Shown here piece after piece: positions 5,713 to 44,282 of a DNA stretch of 64,000 bases (positions are counted from its first letter, which is position 1; the number at the start of each line of letters is the position of its first letter). Source of the stretch: Candidatus Omnitrophota bacterium. Lineage in GTDB: Bacteria; Omnitrophota; Gorgyraeia; 2-01-FULL-45-10. The translations under genes and the position numbers were made by a program. Where the stretch lies: NCBI GenBank assembly GCA_017993955.1, contig JAGOLR010000002.1, positions 26-64,025 on the forward strand, in the 5' to 3' direction. The notes beneath the pieces are model-generated. The model was not told the origin of the DNA and searched no databases. It worked only from the letters and a program-made list of their open reading frames with translations.

Positions 5713-5778
5713 TCCATATAAACTGACTTTTTTAACACTCAACAAATATGGTGTTATTGCTAGGAGCTAGCACTTTTT

Positions 5779-5893
5779 CGTCAGGCGACGAAGCAATCTC
5801 TCTTTCGTCATTGCGAGGAATTATCGCTAAACTCATACGACGAAGCAATCTCTTTTTTAGATTGCTTCGGGCACTTCGTGCCCTCGCAATGAC
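5779..5893. repeat. nested-palindromic intergenic repeat element, copy 1 (a half-unit plus a full unit)
   Basis: cgtcaggcgacgaagcaatctctc + cgtcattgcgagga ... cgacgaagcaatct-cttttttt-agattgcttcg-ggcacttcgtgcc-ctcgcaatgac. Outer arms GTCATTGCGAGG/CCTCGCAATGAC; inner arms GACGAAGCAATCT/AGATTGCTTCG; central palindrome GGCAC-TTC-GTGCC. Confidence 0.85.
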
Positions 5894-22923: not shown

Positions 22924-22972
22924 TCTTAAAAATATGACTTTTTTATATCTTAATTCACACCTCGTCATTGCG

Positions 22973-23108
22973 AGGAGCCGGTGCGTTTTTCGCTCTGTGA
23001 TATCTACTTACGTCATTGCGAGGAGCCATCGTTTTTTCGTCAGGCGATATCCCCCCGTCATTGCGAGGAGGCTGACTATCTCGCGTTGGCCGACGAAGCA
23101 ATCTCTCT
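22973..23108. repeat. repeat element cluster, copy 2: three CGTCATTGCGAGGAG half-sites plus one CGACGAAGCAATCTCTC half-site, abutting the stop codon of gene 3
   Basis: cgtcattgcgaggag at 22973, 23021 and 23057; cgacgaagcaatctctc at 23090-23106, 3 nt before the TAA (23110-23112). Confidence 0.8.
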
Positions 23109-26100: not shown

Positions 26101-29100
26101 CCTGTCGACATCGAATATACTGCACAGAAGCGCGGCAAGTCTCGCCTGGTCTTCTTCTGTTCCGCTGTATTTGCTCTTCTTTATACCCAAAAAATCGTAA
26201 GTGACATTGTCAGGCTCCGAGGTGTTCTTTACGTAACTATTGTAAAATCTGGCCTGTCTTCGGGCAAAGGTAGGTGAATATTGCCCGTCCGATATCATGA
26301 TAAACCATCTGTACGCGTCCCTTATCCTGCCGGACGCAAGATCCGCAAAAAGTTCATCGGATCTTCCTGTCGCTATGAAACGGTCATAGCGCCTTGCGAA
26401 CTCTTCCAGGTTGGCGTTTACCTCTTCGTAATAACGAAGGACCGATCTCTTTTCGTCTTCGGTCACATCGCCGCGCCATCCGCCGTCTTCGCCCTTCAGA
26501 CGTACAAGCGGCATGCCTTCCAGATCCACAAGCCACCCGTCCTCGTTCATCGCAGGTATCGCGTGGACCAGAAGCGCCCTTTGGGGCTTATTTAAAGCCC
26601 TCCAGAATGAAAGCCCTCTGACCCATTTCTGGGTCTCTTCATTCTTGTCCGCGCGCAGTTCGGGCAGGGCCGATACGATATCCCACGCCTTGCCGTGCCA
26701 TAATGTCCTGGCCCAGTTCCTAACTCCTTGCGCATTCAAGAACTGCCTCTTGAGGTCACTCAGTATATCCTCTTCTTCCTTGGTGAGTTCGCCGGACAAA
26801 TCCCTTATATACTCATCCACTCCGAGGGCCCTCAGGTCCTCTCCTTTTAAAACGCCTCTCTTTACGGCTACCTTAACCCATATATTGAATATCGCCTGCT
26901 CGGAGACCGAACTCATCCCTCTGTAGCCGACCGATTTTTTAACATCCTTTTCAACGGCGGATTCCTTTTCCAGTTTTTTCAATTTACCCAGAACGCTTTC
27001 GATTAGAGCGGTATTCAGATCCCTGTAAGATCTTGACAGGGCTTCTATAGCCTCTTTCTCTTCGGGCGCGAACTTATCGAGCTCCCCTAATGAGGCGTAA
27101 AACCTCTCCCAGTCACCGCCAAGTTTTTCGTTTACATATGCCGAAAGCCCCTTTAACCGCATATGGAGTTCCATGTTGCGCAATTTGCCGAGTTCGTAAC
27201 GGCCCTGGGCAAAATTCTCCAGTCGCTTCAGGTCTATGCCCATTGACTTCAGCGCTCTCTTCTGCCCGGGATAGCGCTCGAGCATCCATACATGCAGGGC
27301 TATCGAGTATTCATCCCCAAGCGAAGCTCCTAAGAACCACAGATCGTGATCGCCTAGTGTGAAGCGGTCCACAAGACTCATCATCTCTTCGAACTGACTG
27401 CCGCGGTCGAGTAGATCGCCGACGACCCATACATCGATGCCGGGATTACTCTTTGTAAGCCTGTCGAGAGAATCGGGTGAACCGTGAGTATCCGCGGATA
27501 TGAGCTTGCCGAAACCCGTACGTGATCTCGCCTTCTGCTCTTCCATGTCGTGCGCAAATAGCTCAAAGAGCTTCGTAAACCTGCCGCCGTCGTAAGTAGC
27601 GCGCCTCTCCGGAGTGACTCCCCCGTCTCTCCTGGTCATAAACTCGCCCGATACTATCACCGGGGCCTTGGTTCGGGACGCGATGAAGCTTTTGAACCCA
27701 TCGAGTTCCCCGGGCGTACCTATAGGACCGTAACGCCTGTTCCTTACATTCTCTTTATCGGAGCGTCCTTTTACAGGAGGGAATACGGTCATAGCATCAA
27801 GAACCTCTTTCGCGGTCTGGGCGGTGTCATTTACTATACAGTAAGTGAAGAGGTCCCCAAAATCACATCCAGTATGCTTCTCTATCTGTTCGTATATGTA
27901 TATGTAAGGGTTTATGCCGTTCTTCGCCCTCATGAAATCGGTTTCGTTATCATACATGGGATTGAATACGAATACGGCTATGGCGCCTCGCTCCCGCGCC
28001 CTTATTATGGCGTCGGTTATTCCTACGGGTAGCAGATCTACCAGGATACTGGTATAGAAACTCCCAGGACCTAGGACATAGAAATCTCCTTCGCCGAGGC
28101 TGTCTATCTCCTCTATGCATCTTTCATACGCCATAGGATATTCGCGGCGGTTCCCGAATGAAAGCTCAGATATCACCTTTTCATGGCGGGTATTAGTTAT
28201 TTCATCCTGGCCCACGATACTGGGGCTGCCGTCGGCAAAAGAGATAGACATCTCGCTGTCATTGAGATCTATGCTTGTGGGGAGCGCGACCATTACGTCC
28301 TCCACACCGGCTATATCGCGGCAAAACCTGTCTAGCCCGCGCTGGATACCTTCGGCCGAGAATATGCCTTTGCCGTATCCCTTCTCGAGGAGTATAGAGC
28401 CTAAAAGCGCCAGGTTCTGCACGGTATGATTGGCGAGAGGCATCCTGGGGAATAACCTGTCAACGGCCTGGGCGGATTCAAGGAGGTTTCTGGAGAAGTC
28501 GGACCAGCCCAAATCGCTTCTTAGCGTAGGGTCTTTCTCCCCTCTCTTCTGCTGATCTATCAATAGGCCCTCTACTATATCTGAGAACTTTCTACCCTTA
28601 CCGGCCAGTTCGTCTTTGCTGAACCTGTGGCCAAGTATCTCTTTTCTTTTACGGGGCCCGCGGTTTACAATAGCCTTGGCGATATCGCCTAAAGCCAGCG
28701 AATCTATATCGAGCTTATCCTTTAATAACCTCCGTATCTTCCCGGTACTCCTTCCCGCGTCGAAAGGCGTGATAGCCTTTCTGACAGACCAGCCGTATCC
28801 TCCGAAAGTATCGTCGAAGAACTGTATCCCCGCCCCTCCTCCGGATATAAGCACCTTCCTCTTCCTGGATGTACTGCCCCCCGTTATAGCGGGTAGGCTT
28901 GGGGGGGTCGCGGCTTCGGACTGACGCAGTATGGCGTTCCATATCTCTTCCGGGCTTTGCGCGGATTCTGATATATCTAAAGGCAGCGTCTCTTCCTTTT
29001 GAACCCCATCATCGTAAATAATAGCGGTCTTCTCCCCGGTCAAAATGGCCTGGCCGTAAGATATAGTCGCCCCGAGATCCACAGCCGAAGCTATACCTAA

Positions 29101-32100
29101 AAATAACGCTATGGCGGCAAGCCATCGGCCTAGATAAGACCTCTTCTCGATACGGCGCGGAGAGGCGCTACCGGGTCGTGCCTCTTCCATACCCGCAAGA
29201 AGCACATTATGCGCTTCCTCCAACTGCGGGGCCTCCATCATGCCATCCCTGAAGAATGACGACCCCGCCACAAATATATTGGCACCCGCAGTCAGCGCAC
29301 TCTTTATGGTATCGCCATTTATGCCTCCGTCTATTTCTATAGGCCCATCATAACCGTAATAGAACCTGAGGCGTCTTATATTGGACAAGGCTGAAGGTAT
29401 GAACTTTTGATTGCCAAGTCCCGGATGGACGCTCATCTGCAGGACGATATCTATATCCTGGCGGTGCTCCATTATAAATCTCCCGGCCGAGTCTATTTTT
29501 GTATTCGGATTAAGGGCAATACCCGCCATGGCTCCTCGGCTTTTTATATAACGTAAAAGCCTTAAAAGCTTGCCTTTGTCCTCGAAACCCTCCCAGTGGA
29601 GCGTCACTATACCGGCGCAATTATCAAGATATTTGGCTATGTAGCTTTTTGTAACGTTCTCGTCGGTATCCATAATGTGGAGATCAAAAAGAGGCGTGAC
29701 GCCGAGCTCGCGCCTGTGGCACTCGTCCAGAACATCTTTTAAGAACCGCGGCGTTATTTTGTCGGTCGTATCTTTGCCGCCTTTTTGCACTATCGCGTTA
29801 CCTCTGCCCCCGCTGTTATTTATGCGGTCAAGATGCACGATGGGCCTGCGGCCTTCTCCGGCGAAGATCTCTATGGCATCAACGGTACTTTTGACGCGCT
29901 CTCCGTCGGGTACATTCAATACCGAAGGCGATATCACGAATTCGTCTGCTACAAGCGACGCATGTAAAGGCAACACGTACAGATAATATACTACTGCCAA
30001 GAGCGGTATAAATATGAGCCAGATAGGATGTAAGAATACGCTGCTTAAGATCCCATCAGAAAATATATCCTGAGCGGCATCCTGTGCAAACGCCCGGCCC
30101 GGGAAAAGCATCGCGGCAGTTAATACTCCTATAGTCCCGAGAATATTACGTCTGTCAGTACCCCGTCCGGCTGGACGATATTGGGCCTGGACGTTTCCGG
30201 CCGGCCCCTCATCATCGAATGAGGCAGGCGAGCTACTTTTAACCTTTATCTCGCCATTCCTGTATTCGACATCGAATAGATTCATTATGCCGGCCCTATT
30301 GGGATCAAGTCTCATGTTATCCCAAGAGCTTACTATACGGGCTACCCCATTTTTACCGGCTACAGCGTTCTCCACGTCCTGCCATCGCCGCAGCACAAGC
30401 GATCTTGCCTTATGCGCCGGCAGTCCGGCCAACCTCAAAGCCTCCATGGCTTTTTTAGCGACCAGTATCTTCGCCGCATCCGAGTGGGAAAAGACGACGG
30501 GCAAGCGTTCAGGGCTAAAGCGATTATTTTCCGCAAACCACATCATCCCCCTGATATAGTTAGACCTGCTTCCGCTTCCTTGAGAGTTAAGGATAGATTT
30601 ATAATATGAGGAGCGGAATAAGGGCCATTTCCAGAAGTTCGTGTTCCACATTATTAGAAATGCCGTCAACGCTAGAGCCGCGATGGCAAGTTGCGGGTGG
30701 GTGGATACCTGCTCCCATATGGCGGATAATACGCCTTCGCCACTCTCTACAACAGCCCCCCTTGTCACATCTTCCGCAAAGACCGGTCCTGATGTAAAGA
30801 TAGCGGCAAGTAGCGCAAATATTAAGATCCGCATATGTGCGGCATAGCCATTTTGGCCTATTTGACGATCGTATCCGGACTTTGACACAGAATCGCTTCT
30901 TCTGCCGTAGTCTGGATCGAGATCCAGGTCCACAAGTGCCTCCGCTATGGCCTCGCCTCCTTCGACATGGGAAGGCGTATTATTTATATCCTCAGCCAGA
31001 GCCCCTTCTCCCTTAATGGCTATCATAGACCATGAGCCGTTATATTGAAGTCCGCGTATCATCGTGCTTCCCATGGATTCGAGAAGTTGACGGGCCTCCT
31101 CTACAACGGGATCAGTGAATTGCGTATTGCCCCAGCCGGCGAACCCGCCCTCGTCAGCTACCGCCAAAAGCACTATCTCGCCGTCGGGAATGCTATTCAT
31201 ATAATCGATGAACTCTATGAAACTCTCAACGTTGGCGCGATCGCCGCCGTAAGTATCGAAGTTCCTGGTCTCTTTCATTCTTATGCCGGTATTTCTATCA
31301 AGGATGGCTACATTGATACCGCGTCCGCCGGTGCCGCCACCGCCCCTAAAATATACCGTTTTTTCTCCTATGCCGAATGAGGCGTCGCCATGCGAAGTCG
31401 CCGTAAGTAACGGCCTGCTGTTAAGCGCCACGGCGGCTTGGCCTTTCGTAAATCTGTCCTTCAAAGCATTAAAAGCCTCTTTAGGATTGCCGTCTATATC
31501 GGCAACCCCGAAATATTCTTCGTCGTTACGACCATCGGGTTGTCCGGAGTTGTTCTCACCGCTGGTATCCTGATGGTTCGGGAACCCCAGCTTCCACCAT
31601 TCATCACGCAATTCAAAGACAAGCCCTCCTATGGCTGTGCCGGCGGTCCTCTCGGCGGAAAGCTCGAAAAATATCTCGTCCCAGAGCCATCCGTTCACCT
31701 CTGCCTGCATGGCCTCATTTTCGTCTGGTATCCTGTGGTCAAAGGAGTCTGCCCCGAATTCAGATATAAAGATCGGCTTGTCCGATATGGAGCGCCATTG
31801 TTGGAACACGTCTTCCATGCTTGTACCCCGGTATATACTAAGACCCCAGACATCTACGCTCGGAACGAGCGTATTTACAATATCGGTGGTATATGCGTAA
31901 CCGTTCATCTCTAACGGGAATTCTTCCGGGCTTAATACGTGGTAACCCGGCACATGCGGGTCTGCGAATACAGTAGATACCGGGTGGTTATTATCTATCG
32001 ACTTTATAAGTTGCGCGGCCCTCTCGGTGAAATCGGCAGCATCGAGGCCGGATGCGAATTTTCCGTAGTAGTAATTGATATCCCATTCATTTCCTATAGC

Positions 32101-35100
32101 CCACATAAGAATGGCCGGATGGTCCTTGTAAGCCTCCACTACCCTTCTAACATTATCCATATCGGCCACTACCCCGTATCGGGGAGAATCTACGGCCATG
32201 ATGAGCTTTATGCCCATCCTGTAGAAAGCGTCCAGTATCTCGAAGGCCTCGGGACCGGTCCCAAAATCGTAATAAACTCTCGCGACATTTACGCCCATCC
32301 TCGACATGAGCGAAAGGTCGGCTTTGTACCATTTATAAAATTCCTGGGTTATTGTCGATACGGGCGCGCCCTTGGTGTGAGGCGACCAGTTGACCCCGCG
32401 CGCGACAAATGAATATTCCCCGCCCAGAGTGCCGTCCGGGAGCCTCTCCCGCACGAATAAACGCCTGTCATGCTCTTCTGCGTAAGCCAGGCTCGGAGAC
32501 CTTGGCACCGGCGGCAGCGTCTCGAGCATTATATATCCCGCGAATTGCGATACAAGGCCTGCCCTGTCTTTCGCCTGACACAATATCTCCTTTATACCGT
32601 CACCTTCTGAAAGGGTCATCGCCTTTGAAGTAACGGGTGTCTCCCATGATGTCCAGTTCTCCCCGCCATCCAGAGAGAACCTCAAAGCGCTCAAACCCGA
32701 ACCGGAATCCCGAGCGTTTATATTGACGGTGACACTCCTTGAATCGGTGGTCTCTTCACCGCCGTTTATCGTCAAAACGCCGGTGGGCGGTATCGTATCC
32801 AGGCGTATATCAAAGCTGTATTCTGCCCTCCCGCCCGAGGAATTGGTCTCGACTATAACGCGGGTATTGAGCCCTTCCGAAAGCTGGAAAACAGTCTGTC
32901 TGGGCTCTCCGTCTACCGTATAATCCACAGTAAGCACAGGCGAAGTCGTTATCTCCGGTATCTGGCTCATGATAGCTATGACGGGGTTTATCACGTTAGG
33001 TTTATTACAACCTGTCTGCCCGAGCAGGGCTGGCAAACCCAGGGATGCCAACATAATATTTACAAATGTCCTGCGTGAAGTAAGGCCGCTATCAGAGACG
33101 CTACCGGCTTTACCGATCTCTACAAAAAGTCCGGGCCATATGACTTTCTCTATCGTCCGTCTTACCTTATTCAATATGGCCGCATCTTTAGACGGAGCGT
33201 TTTGAGGCTCCGCGATACCGGCCGCCTCGGCAACCTCATCCAATATGATGACAGTCTTATCTTTAAGCTCTCCCGGGAATCTCGCTTCCAGGGTGGCTTG
33301 CAATCCTTTGTTTACGAATATTATTACGGCAGCCTCTCGCACCTCTTCCAGCGTAGCGGGCCTTGAATCTACTTTCACCGGCTCCTCGCCGAACTCTTGA
33401 CGGAACGCCTCCGCAAGAGGAGCATTTGTAGCCCCCCAACCGAGCTCGCTTTGATCGCCGGCCGCGCCGGAGCTCACCTTCATATATCTAGACAGTTCAT
33501 TTTTATTTATGAGATGGTTAAGGACCATCTGCATGGCGGGACTTCTGTTGTAATTAGAATTACAAACGCATAGTATGGGACCGGCCGGTCTAACCCACTT
33601 GGACTCGGTTTCGGCTACATAGCCCACTCTATCTGTAATACCGTTATTCTCTTCTACAGAAAAAGTATGCTCGTCAATAAAAGCCTTCTCCTCACCGGAT
33701 CCGGCGAGCGCCCAGATGTCAGCCGTTTCGATCTCAGGCGACATGGGCTTTATGCCTTCGGCGACCTCCCACGCGGTATTAGAAAAGGTGGCTTCCTTGG
33801 CTACAAGGTGGCGCATCCTAAGCGACAACTCTATGAGACCGTAACCTTTAGAGGCAGATCTGGACGAACTCGAGGCGTCTGCAATATATTGATAGATAAT
33901 AACCCCGATCAGAACCGCCAGAAAGACGCTAACCCCGAAGATGACATAATGATTAAATGTAAAATTTTTGAGTGCCGCAAATGAAAGATTTAAGATCACC
34001 GGCTGGACGGATTCCGTAAACGGTCCCGCGGCTTGCGCTGAAGCCGAGCCGGCGATAAATACCGCGGTTAAGAACGCGATCATTGGAGCAAGGCCTCGTA
34101 AATTACCCGAACTTCCGGCATCTTTTCTTTCCGCCGGGGCGTTGGCGATGGCTTTGAAGCCTTTCAACGCATCATCAACCATAGGTCTTAGTCTCGGATC
34201 CAGCTTGGCCGCATGCCTAAGATCTCTTTCGCCCTCGTCTTCCATATTAATAGCAAAATATAAAAGTCCCCTGTTATAATATGCGTTTGCAAAGTTAGGA
34301 TCGATCTTTATGGCTTTATTAAAATCATACAGCGCGAGACCTAGTAGGCCTGGCCCTTGCACGTAACTAAAACCACGGTTATTATAAGTAGATGCTTCGA
34401 TCTCATTCTCGGGGCTCAACTCAATAACCTTCGTCAGATCCTGAATAGCCCTAGGATAATCCCTTAATATGTCAAAGTATATACTACCCCTCATCTTGTA
34501 CGCATTAACATAACCTGGGTCTATGCTTATAGCGCGGGAAAAGTCTCGTAATGACTCCGGATACCTGCCCGCCACAAAATAACATGTCCCCCTATTATTG
34601 TAAGCATCGGGATTGTTGGGATTAAATTCTATAATTTTGGTAAAGTTATATATAGCTTTTGGATGATCCAGACCTAAGATGCCGCATGCAGCCACAAGAT
34701 TTTTATAAGCGGTATCGTTCCGGCCATTGAGTTCTAATGACTTGATAAAGTCTGATATCGCTCCAGGCACTCTGCCCAGCGCTAAATGGCATATTCCTCG
34801 TAAATTGTACGCTAGATCAAAATCCGGATTATGTTCTATGGCTTTATTAAGCGCGGTTAAAGCGTCATTATATCTATCTTGCTCGAAAGCCCTTTCTCCC
34901 TGCGTATAATATTTTGTGGCTTCGCTGATCCGGGCCGCGATATCACCTGCGTTCTCTTTGACATCCACATCGCCCGCTCGATGGCTGGGCAATATGCTGA
35001 ATAAACCGGATATTGCAAGAAATATAACCGCTAACCGCATCATAACTTTCATGGCAATCTTCTTTGATCTTGTGGCGCGATCTTCCTGATATACCACCCC

Positions 35101-38100
35101 GGAATTGTCAGCCAAGATATAACTTAATATTCGCCATGTTATGTAAGATGGTACCAATGCGGCAATTACTAATAAAAACGTTCTGGGAGTCACTGAAAAC
35201 CACGAGAAGTTGAATGCTTCTGACCCGCTTTGCGCAAATGCCGAGCCGGAGGCGAGCATGGCGGCGAGGAAGATGCCGAGCGTGCCTGTTATACCCGGGC
35301 TTTTTCCTTGCGGAGATTCGGGTTTCTCCGCAGTAGCCGTTTCCTCTTGGGGAGCATCCTTGATCTCTTCTTCGGCTCCTTCGGCCGGAACCCAATATCC
35401 CGCAGAACTTCCTCCGCCACTATAAGCGTCAAAGTACCCAGAATCGCTGTAGTCAGAATATCCGGTGTCGTTGTTGTTATCTTCGTACGAATTCCGTACT
35501 AGATCTTCATGATGAAGCCAATTTTTCCCACCGGTAATGCCGGCCATTAAGAAAAAGGTGGCGATGACAGGAAGCATCATTAAACAAGCGCTAAGAAAAC
35601 CGGGGAAGATTCCGATTATGTAGCTGAAAACTACCTCGAATCCGCTATGCGAAGTTTGAAGAGACGTGGCGCAGGCGATTGTGAAGTTAATTACCAAAAA
35701 TAATAGCGATGGCAACAATCCCAGACACATAGCAAGATCATTGCGTTCCGAGTCATGCGGCCTGCGTGAATATAGGCCAGCGATTACCCCTGTTATGGCC
35801 GGTACAACAAACATGAAAGTTATAAACGGATGCGATGATATCGCAAAATAAAAAGTTGATAATATTTTAGTTGCGCCGATATTTGTCGCGATACCGTCTG
35901 CCCATGCGCCGCTGGAGGCGAGCATGGCGACGAGGAGTATGTCGAGTTTGCCGGCCGTGCCCGGCCCATTCTTAGTCGTCCCTCGTCCTTCGTCCCTCAT
36001 CCCTCGATCTTCCATACCGTTCTGGGGAACGTCCCCGGCCTTGTTTCGCTTTTGCCCTTTCACTACATTAAGAACGGCGGGGGCATCTGTTATCGTTACA
36101 GTAGTTGAACCATATGAATTACCATAAGCGTCATACTCTTCCTGTTCTTCTTCGTGAGTTTTTGCCGGTACATATTCTACAGTAAAATCATACCCATTCT
36201 TCAAGCATTCCTTAATAACGTCCATCTGAGATGACGTAATATTCGCATCGTTGCCATCAAGAACATTAAGGGTATTCAGAATGCTTTTTACCAAGCCCGG
36301 GTCCGAAACCCTTTTAACGGCTTCCGCTATACGTTCTTTCTCGTACCCAACCCCCCATTGATTATGAACCTTATCGCTTTCTATCCTCTCCAATGCTCCT
36401 ACAACATAATCCGGCATTGTGCTGTCTATAAGCTCCTGCAGATCATGTCCCATAGATACGAGAATAGAAGCGCACACATCGCTTTCAAGAGCTTTAATCG
36501 CAGCGGCGCGAAAACTGGTTCTAAGATGAATGATGCATTTTTCAGTAATGCGTGTACGTAATTCGACTAATAAGCCATCATCGGCTCCAAGTTTTTTTGC
36601 CGCATCTATGATTGGTTTTTCCACATCACTATATAACCCATTAGCAAAGTTACCATGATCTATATACTGCTCCAGTAATGAGATAGCTCGCGGATCGCCG
36701 AAATTACCGAGCTCTACGACTACCTCCTCAGCAACATATCCGGAGGTGTAGTATTTCAACAATACATCCTTATGAAGCTGGAACAATTCTTCCCGCGTGG
36801 CGCCAAGATCTTGATACGCCCTTATCAATGCCCTGTACACAAAACTGCTCCCGGATTCGGCAAGCGGAGACAAAAGTTTCATGACAGACTTATCACCAGA
36901 TTGCCCCAAAACCTCTACTGAAGCTGCTAGTCTATCTCCCTCAACTGAACGCCAATTTTTAACAAGCCTAAGCGCCTGAGGATGGGATATTTTTTCGCCT
37001 GACCTTGGCATCCCGATATCTTTACGTGCAGTTTTATTCGCAAGTCCGGGTTTTTCGCCAGAAGATGCCTCCGATACAGGCTTTTCCATTCGAGAAACTT
37101 CTCCTACGCTTCTTTTAAAAGCGTTTCCCATAACGATATTTAACAAAGAAAGTCCCGCCAGAGGTAGCCAGAAGCCCGAACAGTAAGAAAAATATTCGGT
37201 CGCGAGAACTGTTAGGAATAGATATGCGGTCAGGCCCAAAAACTTATGATCTCTGAAATAGGAGACGGCTTTAAGCATTACCCTGGAAAGAGTCGGACGG
37301 TAATTATCTAGATATCCATACGCAAAGCTCGCTACGATTACCCCGAAGCTGACCGGATGAAAAGGCGCCATTAAAAATACAACTGCCGGGACGCCAACTT
37401 TGGCAGGATTTATATCGCGCTTAAATACCTTCTTTGCTATGAGCCATATAATGGCGCTCGCCAAAAAGACTATGGCTGTAACGATTATGCCATCTATGAA
37501 AAGCTGTCCTAAACTTAAAAGTGGCGCACCGTAAGGTGTGACCTGTATCGGGAGCGTGCCGGTAGGACCTGCCGGAAGAGGCATATGCCCTCCCATGGAA
37601 GGACCTCCGAAATACGACGGTTGCGCAGCTGCCAATCCGGACGCGAGCATGGCGGCGAGGCCGCCTAACAGGAAAGGAATAAAAGAATGCGCCCGCAAGG
37701 ATGGTGTGGACCGGCGACCTCTGGTCTCGAGCCATTTTTTGAGTGCTTCTATCTCTGAGAGACGCCATCTCTTCTTAGCCTCAACCTTAGCTGCGTCGCC
37801 TTTTATCTCTTCCCATCTGGCGAATTGGGCATCTACAAAAAGGTCCTCGCCTAAAACCCTGTAGTTATCTAAAGGCGGCAACGTACGCCTGAATATATCC
37901 ACGCCTGAAATAGGAATCGCTCCCGAATATGCGGTAAGTTTTCTCCTTATGACCTGGGCCATCGGTAGTTTCTCGCCCCTCGCCGCCTTTTTCAGTGTTT
38001 CAAGCCCCACCACTTCGTAATTGGCCTCAAGCCCCGGAGCGATCTCTTTGGCGGTTACCTTAAGCTTGGATGATGCAATGCGGGTGAACTCCTTTTCCCC

Positions 38101-41100
38101 ATCCACGACTACTACTATATCTATATCGTTAGGGCTATCGGACCATGCGTAACTACCCATCAGATATATAGAAACCAGGGGCTTATCCGCGGAAATCATC
38201 CCATTCTCGTATAGGGTAGCGACGACGGCCGGGATCTTGGATCGGATAATTTGTATTTTTGAAACGGCCTTATCGGTCTTATCTTTGCTGTCGGCAATAC
38301 TATGCCACATCCAGCTCCTGGTCTTAAGGATATCGGCAATGGACCTGATGCTCCGTATTACCATTCCTTCGCGCGACAGGTCTAAAGTCCCCGCGTCCAG
38401 TTCCCAAGGAGCTACATCCGGTGCGTATTCGGGAGCGAGCCTTCCCGTACGTATGGCTTCGGCCACACGGTCATGCACTGCCTCAGGCAGCGAAGACGCT
38501 CCGCCCAACCTGAGCACAAGCTGCGCAGGTTTATCAAGCACAGTATTGCTATACTGCATTGGGCTACCGTACACATCATAATATTCCTCTTCCTCCTCAT
38601 GTGTACTGGGCGGGATATATTCGGCCCTGACAGCCTGGGCCGCCTCTATGAAAGATGTTACGAGCTCTATTTGCTGCAAGGTCATAACCGCATAATCGTC
38701 ACTATAACCGTATGTGCGCGAACCTTCCTTGACATGCGAAAGATACGGGACCATAGAAGCAAGGAGCGGGTTGCTTATGGCAATAAGAGACCCGGCACTC
38801 GCAGACCTGACCCTGCTATCGGTGTCGCCCACCCCACTTAACAATGGTATGACCGAACGCTCATCTTTTATCTTTCCTAAAGACGCCGCGGCGGCGGCGC
38901 GGTCTAACCGGGAGGATTTATCGGCCAATATGGCTATAAGCGGCTCCGCAGCGCGGATGTCGCCGGATTCGCCTAGCGCCGTTACGGCTGCGTTGGCTAC
39001 ACCTTTATCGGGGTCGGTAAGCGCGTCATTGATAAGCTCAAACGCGGATCGATCCTTTATCGCGCCTAAAGTCTGCACAGCTGATTTACGTGTATTGGCA
39101 TCCTCATCAGAGAGTAGAGTCTTTAATGCCGGTATAGCCGGTGCCCCCACTTCACCCAGCTTATTCCAGTCACCGGTAGCGACCGCATACGCTATCTCTT
39201 CACCTTTATTTACGGGTTTCCATTCCAATTTTTTCAGCGAATCCGCCGCTATCCTGCGGTTAACGGTATCCGAATCTGACAGGGCTACTACTAGGGCAGG
39301 GGCGGCTTTCTTGTCCCCTATGGCGCCTAATGCCTCTGCAGTTTTACCGCGGACCGCCTTTGACGGGTCCTGGATTAAAGGCTCTAACGCCTTAACTGCT
39401 GTGGAAGCTTTTACCCTGCCGAGTATGGTCGCCGCGCCGGCGCGTATATGCTCATCCGCGTTCTTCAAAGCGGCAATAAGGAGCGTCTCCCTGCGAGGAT
39501 CCTGAATATTGATTATCGCGGTGACAACCGTCTGATGTAATTCAACCTCTGCCAATAAACCGATAAGGCTTTCCAGGGCGCGCGGATCCTTTATCTTCCC
39601 AAGCGCCTCCGCGGCCGATTTCCTTACGCCCTCTGCCGGATCTTTCAGTAATCCTACGAGGGGGATAACAGCCCGCGAATCGCCTATCTCGCCCAGCGAC
39701 CATGCCGCGAGCTGCCTCTTATACTCGTTCTGCGCCGCAAAACATTTTATGAGGTCCTGGACAGCCGGCACATCTATATTGGCCAGAGCTTCGGCAGAAG
39801 CCCGCCTTATCGCGTGTTCCCGGGAATCAAGATTCGATATCAATGCGGCAATAGCCCTCACTTCTTTGATCTTACCTAAAACACGCGAAGATGAAACTAC
39901 AACCTCTTTATTCCGGCTTGAGAGCCCGGCCAATAAACGCGGGGTAGCGCGCGTTCCGAGTAATACAAGCGCCTCTTCCGCCCTCGCAGGAACTCCGTAT
40001 TCATAACTCCCAAGCCGCCACATATGCCAGCGCACAGGGAAAAATAAACGCCATATGATAAAGAACGCGGCGGTACCCAGCGCCAACCCTGCCATCGACG
40101 CGACAACCACGAATCCCAAAGGATGCGCTGCAAAAAGCTCATGGATGATTGATGATAATGTCTTTGTGCCAAAATTTGATGTGCTTTCGCCTGCAAACGC
40201 CGAAGCTGAGGCGAGCATGGCGGCGGTCGTGGCGATAAGAAGAACAGGAAGTTTCGTCGTTCGCGATTTGCCATCGACTTCTTCAGCAAATCGTCCCGAG
40301 CGAAGCGAGGGATCTTGTTCGTAGTTCGTATTTCGGATAATATTAGAAGTATCCTCAAAAAGCCGGTCGATTCCGGAATCTATAGTTCTAATTTCATCGA
40401 TCGCTTTCTCCATATCGCCTTCCCCACCCTGCATTATCCGAGTAAGGTTTTCGACGGCCGTTTTCCGCGCTCCATCTAATCTATCCAGTTCGGTTCCGTC
40501 TATCAAGGCAGGCATATTCTCATACGTTCTATCAAGCAGCGGGACCTGATCAATAACCGCTTCAGCAGGCACTGTGGTATTCGGTGGATAGGTGTCTAGT
40601 CCTGTTTTTTCCGAGTTGGGGACCGCAGAGCCTTCGCCTTTTTTAAGAAACGGCTTAACATTAATAGATAAAACTGACTGTACAAGCCAGTCGCTTCGGT
40701 AAGGATATGACGCATACTCTTTCCTGTCCGGATCCCAAACATAGATCACGGCGCGGCGCCCATCTACGGTCGCAATAAGACTGCCATCGCCGATAGGATA
40801 CGAATTCTGGAGCCAGTCAACTACATAATTATCTCCGTTGACAAACGGCAATCCCGAGAAATCATATATCTTCGCCACTTTATAATCTTTATCCAGGAGA
40901 ATTACGCGGCCGTTCTGGCTATCGGACAGGATATATCCTCCGTTATAATAGATCGCCCCATGCGGTTTATTAAGGTCTTTCAATACAATGCGCGTCCGAC
41001 CCGTAGCCTTCTCTATCTCGATAAGCTGGCCCGGATCAAAAAGAGTGGCCATTATAGTATTCCCATCACGGCCGTAATCGGCCCAGTTCGGACCTGCGCC

Positions 41101-42948
41101 ATAGAAAGCTCTTTCCAGGCCGACCGGCGAATCGACCTTACTTATATCTATGACAACACGGTAGTCCTGCCCGGGCTTTAGATCTTCTCTGACCTTATTC
41201 TCAAATCTCCTAATATATTCTTCCCTTGATAGCACTGTAGTATCCGAAAAACCCGCGATAGGCCGGTCTTTTTCGGTAAGCGTCATGCCGAATTTATTCT
41301 TGCCATACCCGTTCTCCCATGCCAGCCATTCGTAAACTACATTTCCTGATACGATATCTACTTCGAGAATACGGTCCAAGCCGGTGCTAGCAACCAATAT
41401 TAATCCTGGATCGGCAGGATGAAACTTAACCGTGTGTAACAGTTTAAATTCCGGGTTCCTGATGCGTTTTTTAATCTCTTTTGTAGATGTATCGATAATG
41501 ATTATCTCTTCCGAAAAGACTACGGCTATGACGTCATCGCGTACGGCGATATCCCTCGGCTCAACGCCGGATATCTCCCATAGACTTCTGGAGGTCTCCG
41601 CGATATCGTTTACAGTCATAATAAATAAAGAGGTGGGCTCGCTTATCGGCCTTGCTGGCTCGTAAAGCTTACCCGTATCTTTATGTATCCCGATCCTTCT
41701 TGCCTTAAGTTCCGGCGAATTAACGCCTTTCACGACAAAAGCTACCGGAATATTACCGCCAAGGCCACTGACTTCCTTAAAGTCATCGGCAATGCGGACC
41801 ACGGTAGGCTGCGCGGTGGATACGCTGTCGTCCGTTTTTATCTGAGAAAATGAACGCGACGCCATAAGCGGTAGCCCCAAGAATAAGAAAGCCAAAAGAC
41901 CACCTATACCTGCCCCTAAAAATACGCTTATAACTAAGGTCATCACAAATTTGACCGACCACATATCTATACCGGTTACCCCCTCAGCAAATGCCGGCAA
42001 GGCCACGAGCATCATAATTAAAGAGGAAGCGATTATCTTCCGAATACTTATAGTCTTTTCTGGAGCTAATTGGTGGCTTACTTGGGCTATGGGTTCGGAG
42101 ATTGTGACTTGCTTATCGTCTGTTAGATTGCTTCGTCGTTCCGCCTCCGGCGGAACTCCTCGCAATGACGGACTAGACGTCTCGCGTCTTACGTCTAACG
42201 TCTCACCTCTTACGTCTTGCGTCTTGCGATCTTCAACAGTCGTCTCTCTCGATTTGCCATCGGCTTCTTCAGCAAACCGTCCCGAGTGAAGCGAGGGATC
42301 TCCTTCATCCCCCATCTCTCGTTCTTCCACAGACGTCTCACGTCTTACGTCTAACGTCTCACGTTCTTCCACGGACCCCGCCACAGACGTCTTACGTCTT
42401 GCGTCTTGCGTCTCACGTTCGTCATAATCCTCCGGCAGGACCTTCACTGCGTACTTGTCCCCGATCACCCAGTCGTATCCTGCAAGCTCCCTTATAGCGA
42501 GATTATCTTTCTCGGAGATATATATGAGAGACTTCTTGCCATCCGGCGGGTTGTAAAGCATGGTGATAACGCCGTCTTTAAACCTTACATGGGAAAGGTC
42601 GATGCCGTATAGCGCCCTGTATGTCTTAAGGCGCCTAAAAAGAGCTCCTTCGATATGCTGTTCCGGGAGCTGCCCTATCTTGTGAAGATCGTCGCCCATC
42701 AGGTATTTGGCGATGTCGTATATAGCTACTACAAGCCCCCTCTCCGCGAGCACCGATGCCTGAAGTTCAGCGGCGAATTCGTTGACCGGCTGAGTCTGGC
42801 CTACCGATGGAAGCGCCAAGGTCGAGGCGGAAGGCTGGCGCGGCGTGCCGTCTTCCGGATGCGCCCAACTGATATCAAGAGAGAGAAAAGCGGCGATGAG
42901 AATGATGGAGATGACTTTAATAGCGAAGTGGGAACGGAAATTGATCAT
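23110..42948 (-). CDS. giant (6612 aa) signal-peptide-bearing modular protein; enzyme and scaffold modules separated by TM hairpins with internal signal-peptide-like segments: beta-propeller-like region, HEAT, nucleotidyltransferase-like, TPR, LMW-PTP-like, Ig-like plus clan GH-A glycosidase, ILEI/PANDER-like, ribulose-phosphate 3-epimerase, CofD/YvcK, class III FBPase-like metallophosphatase, 2H phosphoesterase
   Basis: Uninterrupted 19.8-kb ORF from ATG 42948-42946, with AAGGGGG SD 6 nt upstream, to TAA 23112-23110. N-terminus [31 protein letters not shown]. Domain coordinates were checked by back-translating [10 protein letters not shown] at 29413-29442. Confidence 0.9.
   Translation of the reverse strand: [6612 protein letters not shown]
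24304..24741 (-). other. 2H phosphoesterase (LigT-like) domain
   Basis: Two HxT/Sx motifs about 130 aa apart: SEHITLSDL and KAHVTLGYL. Confidence 0.45.
27049..27576 (-). other. metallophosphoesterase of the class III fructose-1,6-bisphosphatase (Bacillus Fbp-like) type
   Basis: [49 protein letters not shown] compared with Fbp [45 protein letters not shown] (GDxxDRG ... GNHD/GDHD ... LWxGA). Confidence 0.55.
27934..28866 (-). other. CofD/YvcK (UPF0052, LPPG:FO 2-phospho-L-lactate transferase / gluconeogenesis-factor family) domain
   Basis: [14 protein letters not shown] (compare vvlGGGtGlsxLLrGL); [15 protein letters not shown] (compare vtvaDDGGSsGrLRr); [26 protein letters not shown] (compare iiGPGSlyTSilPnLlvpgi.eAl). 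Confidence 0.65.
29239..29931 (-). other. ribulose-phosphate 3-epimerase domain
   Basis: DLHIMD (compare DVHLMV); [28 protein letters not shown] (compare VLVMSVNPGFGGQKFIPSxLxKIRxLR); [30 protein letters not shown] (compare IEVDGGIN...AGANxxVAGSAIF). Confidence 0.8.
31114..31356 (-). other. ILEI/PANDER (FAM3)-like GG domain
   Basis: [67 protein letters not shown] matches the GRGINV...FDTY...SIPDG.IVL.AV.DE pattern of the ILEI domain. Confidence 0.4.
31459..32826 (-). other. Ig-like (Big-type) domain followed by a clan GH-A (GH5/GH2-like) glycoside hydrolase TIM barrel
   Basis: Ig-like: [58 protein letters not shown]. GH-A: acid/base [10 protein letters not shown] (NE) and nucleophile IFISEFG (xSEFG). 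Confidence 0.5.
33229..33591 (-). other. low-molecular-weight protein-tyrosine-phosphatase / ArsC-like module (CX5R P-loop)
   Basis: [19 protein letters not shown] compared with the LMW-PTP signature V-C-L-G-N-I-C-R-S-P-M-A-E (C-X5-R-S-P). Confidence 0.4.
34174..34926 (-). other. TPR repeat array
   Basis: Repeated 34-aa units with AY.N.G......G....A..D..KA....P consensus ([14 protein letters not shown]..., [14 protein letters not shown]..., [14 protein letters not shown]...). Confidence 0.75.
38749..39861 (-). other. HEAT repeats (PBS-lyase type)
   Basis: Repeated AxALGxIGDxRAxxPLIxLLxDxxxxVRxxAAxAL units, e.g. [44 protein letters not shown]. Confidence 0.7.
42125..42171. repeat. copy of the intergenic palindromic repeat element embedded in frame in the coding sequence of gene 3 (encodes [17 protein letters not shown], aa 259-275)
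   Basis: agattgcttcg-tcg-ttccgcctccggcggaa-ctcctcgcaatgacgg: the same arms as the intergenic copies, with central palindrome TTCCGCC-TCC-GGCGGAA. Confidence 0.8.
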
Positions 42949-43015
42949 TATAGACCCCTTGGTTTTGTTAAATCCAAATTACAAATTTCAAAATCCAAAT
43001 AAATGAAAATCTTCT

Positions 43016-43104
43016 CTTCGTCATTGCGAGGAGCTATTGCTAGACTCAGGCGACGAAGCAATCTATTTTTTAGATTGCTTCGGCCCTTCGGGCCTCGCAA
43101 TGAC
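43016..43104. repeat. nested-palindromic repeat element, copy 3 (full unit)
   Basis: cgtcattgcgaggag-ctattgctagactcagg-cgacgaagcaatct-attttttt-agattgcttcg-gcccttcgggc-ctcgcaatgac. Confidence 0.85.
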
Positions 43105-43134
43105 AAATAAGAAATCGTATTACTCAATAACAAT

Positions 43135-43428
43135 TCAGAGTATAGTATTGTAAAGATCTTTGAAGTCCGGATTCGACTTCTTAATCAATGCTAACTTATC
43201 GGCCCGTGAACCGCCCTTTATTTTCTTCTCCCGCTCTATAGCATCTTTAATGCTATCAAATATCTCATAATGAATAAGCTTCGTAATGTTGTATTTCTTG
43301 GTGAAGCCTTCTACTGATTTTTCCTTATGTTCGTAAACACGTTTTACCAAATCACTCGTTACCCCTGCATAGATAGCTCTGTTCGTTTTATTGGTCATCA
43401 GATATACATATCCGCGCTTATCTTGCAC
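43135..43428 (-). CDS. GIY-YIG nuclease superfamily protein (small URI-domain endonuclease, COG2827-like), 97 aa
   Basis: MQDKRGYVYLMTNKTNRAIYAGVTSDLVKRVYEHKEK...KLIHYEIF...AIEREKKIKGGSRADKLALI shows the GIY/YIG, R, E and hYxE signature blocks typical of the family. GTG start at 43428-43426 (an internal ATG at residue 11 is an alternative); TGA stop at 43137-43135. Confidence 0.85.
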   Translation of the reverse strand: MQDKRGYVYLMTNKTNRAIYAGVTSDLVKRVYEHKEKSVEGFTKKYNITKLIHYEIFDSIKDAIEREKKIKGGSRADKLALIKKSNPDFKDLYNTIL

Positions 43429-43444
43429 TTTAATTCTTTCTTTT

Positions 43445-43489
43445 AGATTGCTTCGTCCTTCTCACTTCGCTCGAAGTCCTCGCAATGAC
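43445..43489. repeat. partial repeat element, copy 4 (right half), 17 nt upstream of the GIY-YIG start
   Basis: agattgcttcg-tccttctcacttcgctcgaagtc-ctcgcaatgac; the central cttcgctcgaag is itself palindromic. Confidence 0.75.
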
Positions 43490-43568
43490 AGGCTGAATTT
43501 TGTCATTTGTCATTGTTAACCCCGCTTTGCGCATTACGTTTTACGCTTCCGCTAGTCTTTATAAATCT

Positions 43569-43613
43569 ATAAACAAAACCGCCAGACCGATTTTCGAGCC
43601 ATTCAGTCTGGCG
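43569..43613 (-). terminator. rho-independent terminator downstream of gene 4 (minus strand)
   Basis: Minus-strand CCGCCAGAC-(17-nt loop)-GTCTGGCGG followed by TTTTGTTTAT. An adjacent second hairpin GAGTAG-n12-CTACTC followed by TGACGTTTT on the plus strand suggests a bidirectional terminator. Confidence 0.5.
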
Positions 43614-43760
43614 GAGTAGATACAATTTTTGCTACTCTGACGTTTTAGCTTACACCTATGCATATTAGTTTCATTTTTTATCAAATTCTACTATATAATT
43701 TATCACAGCTACTGCTTTAAATCAATGCAAGTCCTTCTGTCTTTTTTCTCCCTAACCTGT

Positions 43761-43849
43761 TGTCATTACGAGGAGCTATCGCCAAACTCAGGCGACGAAG
43801 CAATCTCTTTTTTTAGATTGCTTCGGGCACTTCGTGCCCTCGCAATGAC
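43761..43849. repeat. nested-palindromic repeat element, copy 5 (full unit)
   Basis: tgtcattacgaggag-ctatcgccaaactcagg-cgacgaagcaatct-cttttttt-agattgcttcg-ggcacttcgtgcc-ctcgcaatgac. Confidence 0.85.
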
Positions 43850-44150
43850 GCAGATGCGATTCTTTCGAACCTCTCACTTTACGCTTTTCGCTTTATCCCA
43901 CCGCGACATCCAGAAGAATGGGGCGGGATTCCACCTCGCCCTTAAAAGATTGTGATAGCGGAAAAAGCCCGTCCTCGCTCCTAAGGGAGCCGCTTGGCAG
44001 AGCCCCCAAAGAAGCGAAGACGGATACCCTCGCTTACGCTTTACAATGGCGGAAGCGGGGTGGGGTAATATCGTCGTTCATAGATCGTAGTTCGTTAAAG
44101 AACGGATAATTTCATTAATTGTCTATCGTTAAAGAACAGCTAATACCGTC

Positions 44151-44270
44151 CGTCATTGCGAGGAACCATCTTTTTATTTCATGTGACGAAGCAATCTCTT
44201 TTTTTAGATTGCTTCGGGCACTTCGTGCCCTCGCAATGACGAAAGAATAATTTCGTGCCCTCGCAATGAC
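44151..44270. repeat. nested-palindromic repeat element, copy 6 (full unit with a duplicated right arm), ending 13 nt from the stop of gene 4
   Basis: cgtcattgcgaggaa...gtgacgaagcaatct-cttttttt-agattgcttcg-ggcacttcgtgcc-ctcgcaatgac-gaaagaataattt-cgtgccctcgcaatgac. Confidence 0.85.
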
Positions 44271-44282
44271 AAATAACGATGA

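Follow-up and report, generated by a model that had tools for sequence, protein, structure and literature searches.

The 45-nt segment at 42125-42169 of the window, the 64,000-nt stretch of Candidatus Omnitrophota DNA analysed here, is a solo copy of a GTCATTGCGAGG-[variable hairpin]-CGACGAAGCAATCT repeat, read in frame on the minus strand of a 6,612-codon ORF (23110..42948, minus strand). It is best explained as a single end-hairpin of a REPIN-like, GIY-YIG-associated element that is tolerated much as the Rickettsia palindromic elements are, and taken as a whole this explanation is quite probably correct. Fifteen amino acids were thus added to a 6,612-residue protein, with the gene left unbroken. 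The copy has exact arms, AGATTGCTTCG (42125-42135) and CCTCGCAATGAC (42158-42169). The minus strand reads GTCATTGCGAGGAGTTCCGCCGGAGGCGGAACGACGAAGCAATCT, a copy of the "long" class, whose 15 codons contribute 14 residues of an 18-residue stretch. RNA folding of the copy yields -21.4 kcal/mol (z -3.2). Its central palindrome, TTCCGCC-TCC-GGCGGAA at 42139..42155, with an 8-bp stem when the neighbouring G/C pair is included, recurred, among all sequences retrieved, only in L003, a contig of the same species. The first-pass annotation had singled out this palindrome as new, a distinction that falls away because every copy of the repeat has a hypervariable centre.

The match within the ORF is not due to chance, since the arm motifs exceed the expectation from shuffled sequences: CTCGCAATGAC occurs 17 times with at most one mismatch (0.85 expected) and GATTGCTTCGTC 15 times with at most two (5.4 expected). 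An nhmmer profile built from the copies in the window returned the ORF copy with E = 2e-9 and no further coding position at E < 0.5. This value, together with the exact arms, bears out the earlier claim of a genuine in-frame copy of the intergenic repeat; the sequence then quoted for 42125-42171 is present, but the conserved unit ends at 42169 and the last two bases are flank. Complete copies number one in the ~62 kb of coding DNA of the window versus 11, plus three partial ones, in ~2 kb of intergenic DNA. An assembly artefact was rejected because the identical copy recurs in L003 (ERZ2648158), which was assembled independently from the same species.

The host protein is a mosaic of enzyme-like modules with hydrophobic, signal-peptide-like segments between them. 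It begins with a conserved domain of 175 residues (42424..42948, minus strand) for which 128 homologues but no Pfam match were found and which is 89% identical in a sister species. The repeat lies in the charged, low-complexity, fast-evolving linker between this domain and the first membrane segment; it had been placed correctly in a low-complexity linker, but the linker follows the conserved domain and not directly a signal region. The copy is flanked by low-complexity sequence of an 11-residue type, encoded by imperfect heptanucleotide repeats, (ACGTCTN)n, that form three arrays (42177-42233, 42333-42364 and 42387-42418). All 11 matches to the heptamer (0.18 expected) fall within this linker, and among the loci compared the arrays recur only in L003. 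The near-exact repeat noticed earlier in the neighbourhood is real but belongs to a second, distinct 57-nt element, GATCCCTCGCTTCACTCGGGACGGTTTGCTGAAGAAGCCGATGGCAAATCG (family D2), which encodes 18 residues in frame at 42240..42306 (minus strand) and again, 88% identical and in the same frame, with 18 residues, in a different linker of the same gene at 40254..40320 (minus strand). Its arms are laid out as in the 45-nt repeat, with the stem TCCC/GGGA instead.

Comparison with homologues indicates that the insertion in the giant gene is derived and not ancestral, because six distant homologues of the N-terminal domain have a short linker, 'PEDYxEP...V.ISEPIAEV...IRAII', that lacks the element. 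No element-type peptide was found in the ~125 homologues other than the three closest proteins. The sister-species orthologue contains three coding copies. In L001, a degenerate arm, CCGTTATTGAGAGGA, lies at the orthologous point, a complete copy occupies the same linker in a different reading frame (VIARRPEADEAIS), and a second copy is located where the window has an outgroup-like empty site of 11 residues. L002, from the same sister species, carries a whole doublet in frame in a third linker (SLRGPEGRSNLKEIASS...PRNDE). These comparisons of empty and filled sites involve only two species, ~20-28% diverged, with ambiguous junctions, and no mobility event was observed in them. In-frame copies also occur in the interdomain linker of PurL in a Bacteroidales genome (L073), and a Curtissbacteria genome (L077) has one in an ATP-dependent DNA ligase, where it splits the adenylation domain. 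The first-pass annotation had named an ancestral peptide segment and a lack of other coding insertions as grounds against its reading; since the insertion is derived and further coding copies exist, an insertion into coding sequence stands.

Tolerance of the copy follows from its length of exactly 15 codons, from arms that are free of stop codons in all but one of the six frames, from a site in a charged linker that already holds the heptamer arrays and the second repeat, and from an ORF that remains open over 6,612 codons. The whole copy is open in five of the six frames, and 121 distinct copies, oriented as in the giant gene, are open in 85-91% of cases in each of the three frames. The peptide is presumably translated, as judged from the open frame.

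The repeat, which is usually intergenic, is not lineage-specific: the matches listed, in which all 22 fixed bases of GTCATTGCGAGG N8-38 CGAAGCAATC are exact, come from at least 120 contigs and over 15 phyla, and most of them are inverted doublets. Where lineages have altered arms, paired changes (TTCT/AGAA, TCCC/GGGA) preserve the stem. In the window, the doublet at 43762..43849 (43762-43806, plus; 43815-43849, minus) is missing at the corresponding sister-species site. The doublet beginning at 44152 (44152-44197, plus; 44206-44240, minus), which together with a partly duplicated terminal arm (44257-44270) spans 44152..44270, has an orthologue at L001 971-1060, the hairpins differing by a compensatory change. 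At 22964..23104 (plus strand) two partial copies with only the 5' arm (22964-22979, 23012-23047) precede a complete copy (23057-23104) in a terminal-arm "stutter", and at 5753..5893 a degenerate copy (5753-5799, plus) is followed by a doublet (5807-5851, plus; 5859-5893, minus). The MITE-like or REPIN-like form of the repeat is the inverted doublet, not the single hairpin; of the MITE-like insertion proposed earlier, the tolerated coding copy holds, but not a whole MITE, the copy being a single hairpin unit equivalent to one terminal repeat. The suggested search for flanking direct repeats found none at 42125-42169, nor were target-site duplications found for the family.

A gene for a minimal, Slx1/UPF0213-like GIY-YIG nuclease of 97 residues (43135..43428, minus strand; Pfam PF01541, E 1.4e-16) is flanked by copies on both sides. 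A long-class copy 17 nt upstream of its start codon (43445..43489, minus strand) forms the left end of the unit, and an inverted doublet lies downstream (43020..43104), composed of a long copy (43020-43064, plus), a T-run and a short copy (43072-43104, minus). The closest solved structures, weakly matched, are the UPF0213 proteins 1zg2 and 1ywl; minimal prokaryotic GIY-YIG proteins have been grouped with the structure-specific Slx1 (PMC1564403). The gene is likewise bracketed in L092 and L033. Among 80 metagenomic loci with a homologue, 61 have a GIY-YIG gene of ~95 codons placed between GTCATTGCGAG and CTCGCAATGAC, with 342-560 nt separating the two motifs. In bacteria of many phyla the repeat makes up both ends, in inverted orientation, of a compact ~370-nt unit carrying such a gene. 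Far more frequently it occurs as inverted doublets or single hairpins that lack the gene. The gene could instead be a passenger that homes into palindromes and not the enzyme that spreads them, which is favoured by the detection of a GIY-YIG gene at only two of 120 listed loci found through the arms alone.

New copies are probably made in trans and without target-site duplication, the most likely route being cleavage of hairpins or cruciforms by a structure-selective GIY-YIG nuclease, followed by repair or copying. Copies probably entered the N-terminal linker in the common lineage of the window species and the sister species; in the solo copy a hypervariable hairpin is enclosed by the conserved arms GTCATTGCGAGG and CGAAGCAATCT. 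At the orthologous site the arms are exact in both species despite the diverged surrounding linker, which could reflect selection on the element instead of recent re-insertion or gene conversion; under the preferred reading of a tolerated end-hairpin, the encoded peptide would be a passenger and not an adaptation. In-frame recombination mediated by the elements, also proposed earlier, found no support: module content differs between the giant-gene orthologues, and no rearrangement junction among them is tied to an element.

Copying driven by the GIY-YIG nuclease would have its analogue in the mobilisation of REP/REPIN sequences by RAYT. The toleration of in-frame copies within genes resembles that of the palindromic elements known in Rickettsia (PMC10969869).

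The element copy at 42125-42169 lies within gene 3, a giant open reading frame on the minus strand (23110-42948, 6,612 codons), and its presence there in the reading frame is confirmed. The sequence quoted in the first-pass annotation extended from 42125 to 42171, of which the conserved unit occupies 45 nt, exactly 15 codons. Both arms, AGATTGCTTCG and CCTCGCAATGAC, are exact over their 11-12 nt and are separated by the spacing normal for the family; between them lies the central palindrome TTCCGCC-TCC-GGCGGAA. The giant ORF translates the copy in frame as an 18-residue segment, the frame continues uninterrupted on either side, and five of the six frames through the copy are free of stop codons. 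A search with a profile built from the twelve complete copies of the window retrieved it with E = 2e-9, and no further coding position of the window scored better than E = 0.5. One arm motif matched the window 17 times versus 0.85 times expected from shuffled sequences, the other 15 times versus 5.4. The copy in gene 3 is the only one in approximately 62 kb of coding DNA, compared with 11 complete and 3 partial copies in approximately 2 kb of non-coding DNA. The exact arms, the E value and the open frame bear out the original claim that a copy of the intergenic repeat is read in frame in gene 3. It is not an assembly artefact, because an independently assembled contig of the same species (L003, ERZ2648158), 99.65% identical to the window over 17 kb, contains it base for base. 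That contig, assembled at about 2x coverage, differs from 35772-52968 of the window by some twenty indels of 1-5 nt, and its giant ORFs are split into several called genes. The indels are probably assembly errors rather than biology, and none of them touches the element copy.

Once brought into a common orientation, all copies in the window show GTCATTGCGAGG followed by a variable centre and CGAAGCAATCT, and the ATTGC and GCAAT of the arms are able to pair. They fall into two size classes, long copies of 45-48 nt, which include that of gene 3, and short copies of 33-35 nt. Four inverted doublets (5807-5893, 43020-43104, 43762-43849 and 44152-44240) each consist of a long copy facing a short one across a T/A run. 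Solitary repeats of the terminal arm, forming a "stutter", occur at 22964, 23012 and 44257. In the Omnitrophota genome the centre usually forms a GC-rich hairpin of its own with a sequence that differs from copy to copy, such as GGGCAC-GAAG-GTGCCC, GGCCC-GAAG-GGCC or GTTCCGCC-GGA-GGCGGAAC. The centre of the gene 3 copy was unique among all sequences compared. It had been singled out as a new central palindrome; because each copy has a different centre, it is the normal hypervariable part of the element and nothing special. Across phyla, a test for central hairpins gave a modest signal (mean MFE -3.8 versus -2.0 kcal/mol in shuffled sequences), with a perfect stem of at least 4 bp in 36% of the centres, so that the central hairpin is common, not universal. 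The most frequent centre among the loci from other phyla (L004-L123), GAGCGAAGCGAC, contains GCGAAGC, which we take to be an unusually stable DNA mini-hairpin motif and which would fit a role in single-stranded DNA.

The element is neither a terminator nor a canonical homing endonuclease gene, and it does not belong to an Rfam family. Downstream of the gene 3 copy, in the orientation of the gene, the sequence reads AACAGACG, not the T-run that follows the GC-rich hairpin of a Rho-independent terminator, and a terminator and promoter scan of 41900-44400 called no element copy. Rfam yielded no match in the whole window at gathering thresholds and, at E values up to 10, only two chance-level matches in 42000-44400, neither of them on the element; a tRNA/tmRNA scan found none. 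Upstream of gene 3, the non-coding blocks 43490-43761 and 43850-44151 are approximately 71-72% identical to positions 1061-1465 of L001, a sister-species contig, an identity that equals that of the adjacent coding DNA. On the minus strand at about 43612-43570 there is a hairpin followed by a T-run (CCGCCAGAC...GTCTGGCGG TTTTG), in place of which L001 has a different hairpin with T-run (CCAGGCTA...TAGCCTGG TTTTTTT). The conserved blocks with their hairpin and T-run suggest a small transcript; they had no match in Rfam. In the intergenic slot that in the window holds a GIY-YIG nuclease gene, L001 has a PF05635 gene (1513-1863) for a 23S rRNA intervening-sequence protein, a four-helix bundle, flanked at 1466-1512 and 1864-1961 by heptamer arrays in inverted orientation, with (GTGNAAA)n on the upstream and (TTTNCAC)n on the downstream side.

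Gene 3 is one of four very long ORFs in the window, all on the minus strand. One of the others, of at least 1,867 codons, has its start at 5603 and is truncated by the left window end; the remaining two extend over 5952-22859 and 44283-63974. The first 800 residues of the gene 3 protein matched only three database proteins, one from the same species and two, P0002 and P0003, from one other Candidatus Omnitrophota MAG (sample ERZ795059). The N-terminal domain (residues 1-175) is conserved in 128 homologues, mostly at the start of proteins of 1,000-5,500 residues, and residues 1-1,000 gave no match to a Pfam domain. Gene 3 consists of enzyme-like modules in series, and a signal-peptide-like segment precedes each of them (e.g. 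at residues about 902, 1759, 2559 and 4275); these segments have stretches of 18-24 nt in common. In the sister-species contig L002 the counterpart of 40552-41825 is missing, as are about 6 kb between 40321 and 34029, and one module is duplicated there.

The linker that holds the element, between the N-terminal domain and the first hydrophobic segment, has a high content of Glu, Arg, Ser, Asp and Thr. Over 300 nt (42125-42420) this linker is a mosaic of repeats composed of the element, heptamer arrays and a 57-nt element. The three imperfect heptamer arrays, (ACGTCTN)n, extend over 42177-42418 and occur nowhere else in the window. They are situated in the 5' part of the giant ORF, and their unit length is not divisible by three, an arrangement classically seen in slipped-strand on/off switches; their length did not differ between the window and the second assembly of the species. 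The 57-nt element, GATCCCTCGCTTCACTCGGGACGG...GGCAAATCG, encodes an 18-residue peptide and has another copy, 88% identical and in the same frame, in a further linker of gene 3 (40254-40320). A third, degenerate copy, considered at about 37700 for the peptide STPSLRAHS, was not supported by the DNA. The corresponding linker of the sister species contains about one and a half heptamers and no 57-nt element. Since the linker contents differ between the sister species, the linker is a sink for repeats that changes quickly, under constraint only on its length modulo three.

Judged from the homologues, the insertion in gene 3 is derived. Six distant homologues have a short linker, in which PEDYxEP is followed by 10-25 residues, V.ISEPIAEV, IRAII and the membrane segment, with nothing at the position of the approximately 90-residue block of the window. 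Six element-type peptide signatures, sought in the 128 homologues of the N-terminal domain, were found only in the three closest proteins and in none of the approximately 125 others. The peptide is thus not ancestral, contrary to one of the two outcomes that the first-pass annotation had named as refuting the insertion. Directly following the same GAGACGTCT motif, the CCGTCATTGCGAGGA (SLRG) of the window is replaced in the sister species by a degenerate arm, CCGTTATTGAGAGGA (LLRG); 21 nt further on, the sister species has a complete copy with a different centre in another frame (SVIARRPEADEAIS). The sister species has a second complete copy, SVIARRAKPDEAIS; at the corresponding place the window, like the outgroup protein P0004 (PEKKITIRAII), has the empty site. 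A whole doublet, short plus long, is read in frame in another linker of the sister orthologue (SLRGPEGRSNL-KEIASSPDDKTIAPRNDE). The first-pass annotation had offered two readings, an insertion tolerated in coding sequence and an element that mediates in-frame recombination. Support was obtained for the former, as the copy is derived, the frame is kept at 15 codons and the ORF is open.

The family extends far beyond Omnitrophota. A scan of one genome per species with the pattern GTCATTGCGAGG N8-38 CGAAGCAATC matched at least 120 contigs from more than 15 phyla, among them Alpha-, Gamma- and Deltaproteobacteria, Bacteroidota, Chloroflexota, Patescibacteria, Planctomycetota, Zixibacteria, Ignavibacteriota, Armatimonadota, Gemmatimonadota, Verrucomicrobiota, Omnitrophota and others. 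Twenty-two arm bases are identical across these more than 15 phyla. The cultured genera Bradyrhizobium, Pedobacter, Mucilaginibacter and Chryseobacterium are among the matches listed, the majority of which are inverted doublets with a 10-30 nt spacer. For 121 distinct copies found in other genomes and read in the orientation of gene 3, the open fraction is 85-91% in each of the three frames. In PurL of a Bacteroidales contig (L073, 5290-5320) a copy is read in frame in the linker that leads to the glutaminase domain. Another is read in frame inside the adenylation domain of an ATP-dependent DNA ligase of Curtissbacteria (L077, 2015-2050), with Pfam domains matched on both sides. With these and the further copies of the sister orthologue, coding insertions are not restricted to gene 3, so that the second refuting outcome named at first, a lack of other coding insertions, fails as well. 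Other repeat-derived peptides occur near the two copies, LRQAQ in PurL and LRLRSGQA in the ligase. At L119 (1500-2300) at least eight element copies form a tandem array with two alternating spacer types of about 55-100 nt; the array is not CRISPR-like because the spacers themselves repeat. Literature matches to the arm sequences consisted of primers and unrelated sequences only.

The arms are exact at the orthologous point in both species despite a highly diverged linker. This would be best explained by repeated insertion or gene conversion at the same spot, although selection on the hairpin may also preserve the arms. According to the latter scenario the element is kept since its hairpin, in DNA or mRNA, serves the host, for example as a hotspot of in-frame module shuffling, as an RNase or processing site or as a site of translational pausing. 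The predicted fold of the gene 3 copy is stable (-21 kcal/mol, z about -3.2), module content is very different among the orthologues, and the doublet of L002 lies in a linker between two paralogous modules, all of which would suit such a function. We nevertheless consider it improbable: the two species have the element in different frames, with different centre sequences and in different copy number, approximately 125 distant homologues do without the element, the same family occurs in unrelated genes of other phyla, and re-insertion or gene conversion from the many intergenic copies explains the exact arms equally well. No rearrangement junction coincides with an element, and the proposal that the elements mediate in-frame recombination in the linkers was thus not established.

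That nothing was inserted, the linker being former intergenic DNA whose repeats became coding through gene fusion, is very unlikely and largely refuted. Such a relic could account for the mosaic of three repeat types and for the modules of the giant ORF that start with signal-peptide-like segments, like fused genes, but homologues in which the repeats are absent have the N-terminal domain, the short linker, SEPIAEV and the IRAII membrane segment in common, so that any fusion is older than the arrival of the repeat. Scarcely credible is a chance resemblance or an assembly chimera at the repeat. Repeats are classic sites of mis-assembly in metagenomes; yet an independent assembly has the identical sequence, a third assembly, that of the sister species, has a copy at the orthologous site, and the reading frame is unbroken on both sides. 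Exact arms at normal spacing with an E value of 2e-9 are not expected by chance where shuffled sequences yield approximately 0.85 arm matches per window.

The GIY-YIG gene of the window (43135-43428, minus strand; PF01541, E 1.4e-16) is situated between element copies: its start is preceded at 17 nt by a long copy, and a doublet follows directly after the gene. Among the 120 matches listed, two loci had a homologue of the nuclease, in both cases exactly between a left and a right copy. For the converse test, 80 metagenomic loci were chosen only for a nuclease homologue (52-71% identity). GTCATTGCGAG and CTCGCAATGAC, with at most one mismatch each and 342-560 nt apart, enclosed the gene in 61 of the 80; when both halves of the arm were required, the left element was present in 51 of 73 loci and the right one in 51 of 76. 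The stop codon of the nuclease gene often overlaps the right arm (TGAGATTGC), and in 43 of approximately 60 units the repeat extends outward by one base, T...A. The failing loci mostly have a 4-bp stem that is changed on both sides, to GTCATTCTGAG...GAAGAATC or GATCCC...GGGATGAC, with cultured examples on a Planktothrix and a Rhizobium plasmid. The Rhizobium-type TCCC/GGGA stem is that of the 57-nt element of the window, and the rhizobial variant may overlap repeats known by names such as RIME or Bru-RS. On the Planktothrix agardhii plasmid (L204, NZ_LR882964.1, 18450-19513) the GIY-YIG gene, whose arms are of the TTCT/AGAA type, is placed between an MmeI-type restriction-modification gene and the DISARM gene drmA. 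Three repeats of its terminal arm GTCATTCTGAG, spaced 23 nt apart, form a stutter like that at 22964-23104 of the window. In a planctomycetal locus (L033, about 4850-5520, minus strand) the GIY-YIG unit is preceded by a copy, at least about 85 nt long, of the 5' end of the following gene, which is pheT-like as read from its translation; the interrupted gene is thereby restored downstream of the element. At another locus (L203) one GIY-YIG unit is nested in the spacer of another doublet.

The GIY-YIG protein comprises 97 residues with the catalytic domain only and no additional DNA-binding domain. It scored 22 bits with TIGR01453 (group I intron endonuclease), below the cut-off of 56 bits, and its closest solved relatives are the UPF0213 minimal proteins 1zg2 and 1ywl of the PDB. 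An exact-sequence look-up of the protein returned no record, and a phage collection contained no homologue. In the literature covered, which omits most subscription journals, no description was found that ties GIY-YIG proteins, those of the UPF0213/COG2827/YhbQ type included, to REP, REPIN, MITE, palindromic or selfish repeats, and two papers on Omnitrophota giant genes mention neither linkers nor palindromes nor repeats between genes. Slx1 cuts DNA in a structure-selective manner. Prokaryotic minimal GIY-YIG proteins are classed with Slx1 (PMC1564403), and in view of this relationship the most economical mechanism would be cleavage of extruded hairpins or cruciforms by the GIY-YIG nuclease, followed by repair or copying that spreads the element. 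The gene-less hairpins and doublets would then be non-autonomous relatives of the GIY-YIG unit, copied in trans. Such a mechanism would resemble REP/REPIN-RAYT rather than cut-and-paste transposition.

We tentatively propose that the GTCATTGCGAG...CTCGCAATGAC hairpins and the approximately 95-residue Slx1-like GIY-YIG gene form an undescribed pan-bacterial mobile element, the GIY-YIG counterpart of REPIN-RAYT, whose hairpins are copied without target duplication, routinely seed in-frame peptides and, in Omnitrophota, supply raw material for building and remodelling the linkers of giant genes. The shared arms and the GIY-YIG gene point to a very widespread selfish element that was not found described in the literature searched. 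The giant-gene linkers are a dumping ground for repeat DNA (the element, the 57-nt element and the heptamer arrays), which turns over between sister species while the ORF stays open, and this uptake is a concrete way for the linkers of very long proteins to grow. The element would account for many "hypothetical protein" calls with VIAR..DEAIS, SLRG..RSNL or RLLR..PRND peptides, and the arm hairpins are a testable candidate substrate of the uncharacterized UPF0213/Slx1-like bacterial nucleases.

Nuclease genes with selfish spread and palindromes in coding sequence have precedents in the free-standing GIY-YIG homing endonuclease genes and in the mobile GC-cluster palindromes of yeast mitochondria, some of which lie in coding sequence. 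The element shares the GIY-YIG domain with homing endonuclease genes; unlike these, its protein of about 95 residues has no extra DNA-binding domain and does not reside in an intron or intein. Homing enzymes moreover recognize the empty target, not their own ends. With MITEs the element has in common that its doublets are small, have terminal inverted repeats, carry no coding gene and resemble gene-free derivatives of a unit that has one. The gene 3 copy, however, represents one end only, not a whole element. Flanking direct repeats, proposed as a check in the first-pass annotation, were looked for and are absent between its flanks, TAGTCC on one side and AACAGA on the other. At the junctions of 57 GIY-YIG units the direct repeat averaged 0.18 nt versus 0.16 nt in permuted pairs, and a possible AGGTT duplication at 43762-43849 has ambiguous borders. 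To our knowledge, GIY-YIG nucleases are not a recognized transposase family of bacteria. Because neither a target-site duplication nor a known transposase was found, the element is not a classical MITE, and the MITE-like label given to it initially was not established.

The in-frame selfish palindrome in gene 3 is a new case of a known phenomenon. Rickettsia palindromic elements (RPEs) are palindromic repeats that lie in frame in unrelated genes (Ogata et al. 2000; reviewed in PMC10969869), and Cod-2, a small repeat of Corynebacterium diphtheriae, is found within coding sequences in different frames (PMC2267715). As in these systems, an intergenic palindrome also occurs in frame in unrelated intact genes, in different frames and with the addition of a peptide; for the element this holds in gene 3, in three sister copies, in PurL and in DNA ligase. 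RPEs differ in their size of about 100-150 bp, their restriction to Rickettsia and the lack of a known associated enzyme, whereas the element measures 33-48 nt, or about 85 nt as a doublet, is found with identical arms in more than 15 phyla and flanks a GIY-YIG gene. In view of their size and taxon, RPEs are treated as an analogue of the element and not as its class.

The family as a whole appears to be a new variant of the REPIN idea, very widely distributed and centred on a GIY-YIG nuclease. In REP/REPIN-RAYT systems, short imperfect palindromes, mainly extragenic, form inverted doublets and flank the gene of a small single-domain nuclease (PMC3116915, PMC3337134). The element likewise consists of short hairpins (33-48 nt, compared with the 20-40 nt of the REP definition) that are over-represented and overwhelmingly extragenic. 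It forms inverted doublets with a short spacer, four in the window and predominant in other phyla, shows no target-site duplication and flanks a small nuclease gene on both sides. It differs in its head, which is (T/C)GTCATTGCGAG in all copies and not the GTAG of REP, and in the flanked gene, which is a GIY-YIG (Slx1-like) gene, with no Y1/HUH (IS200-like) RAYT among the flanked genes. Finally, REP families are lineage-specific and mostly inherited vertically, whereas the arms of the element are identical across phyla.
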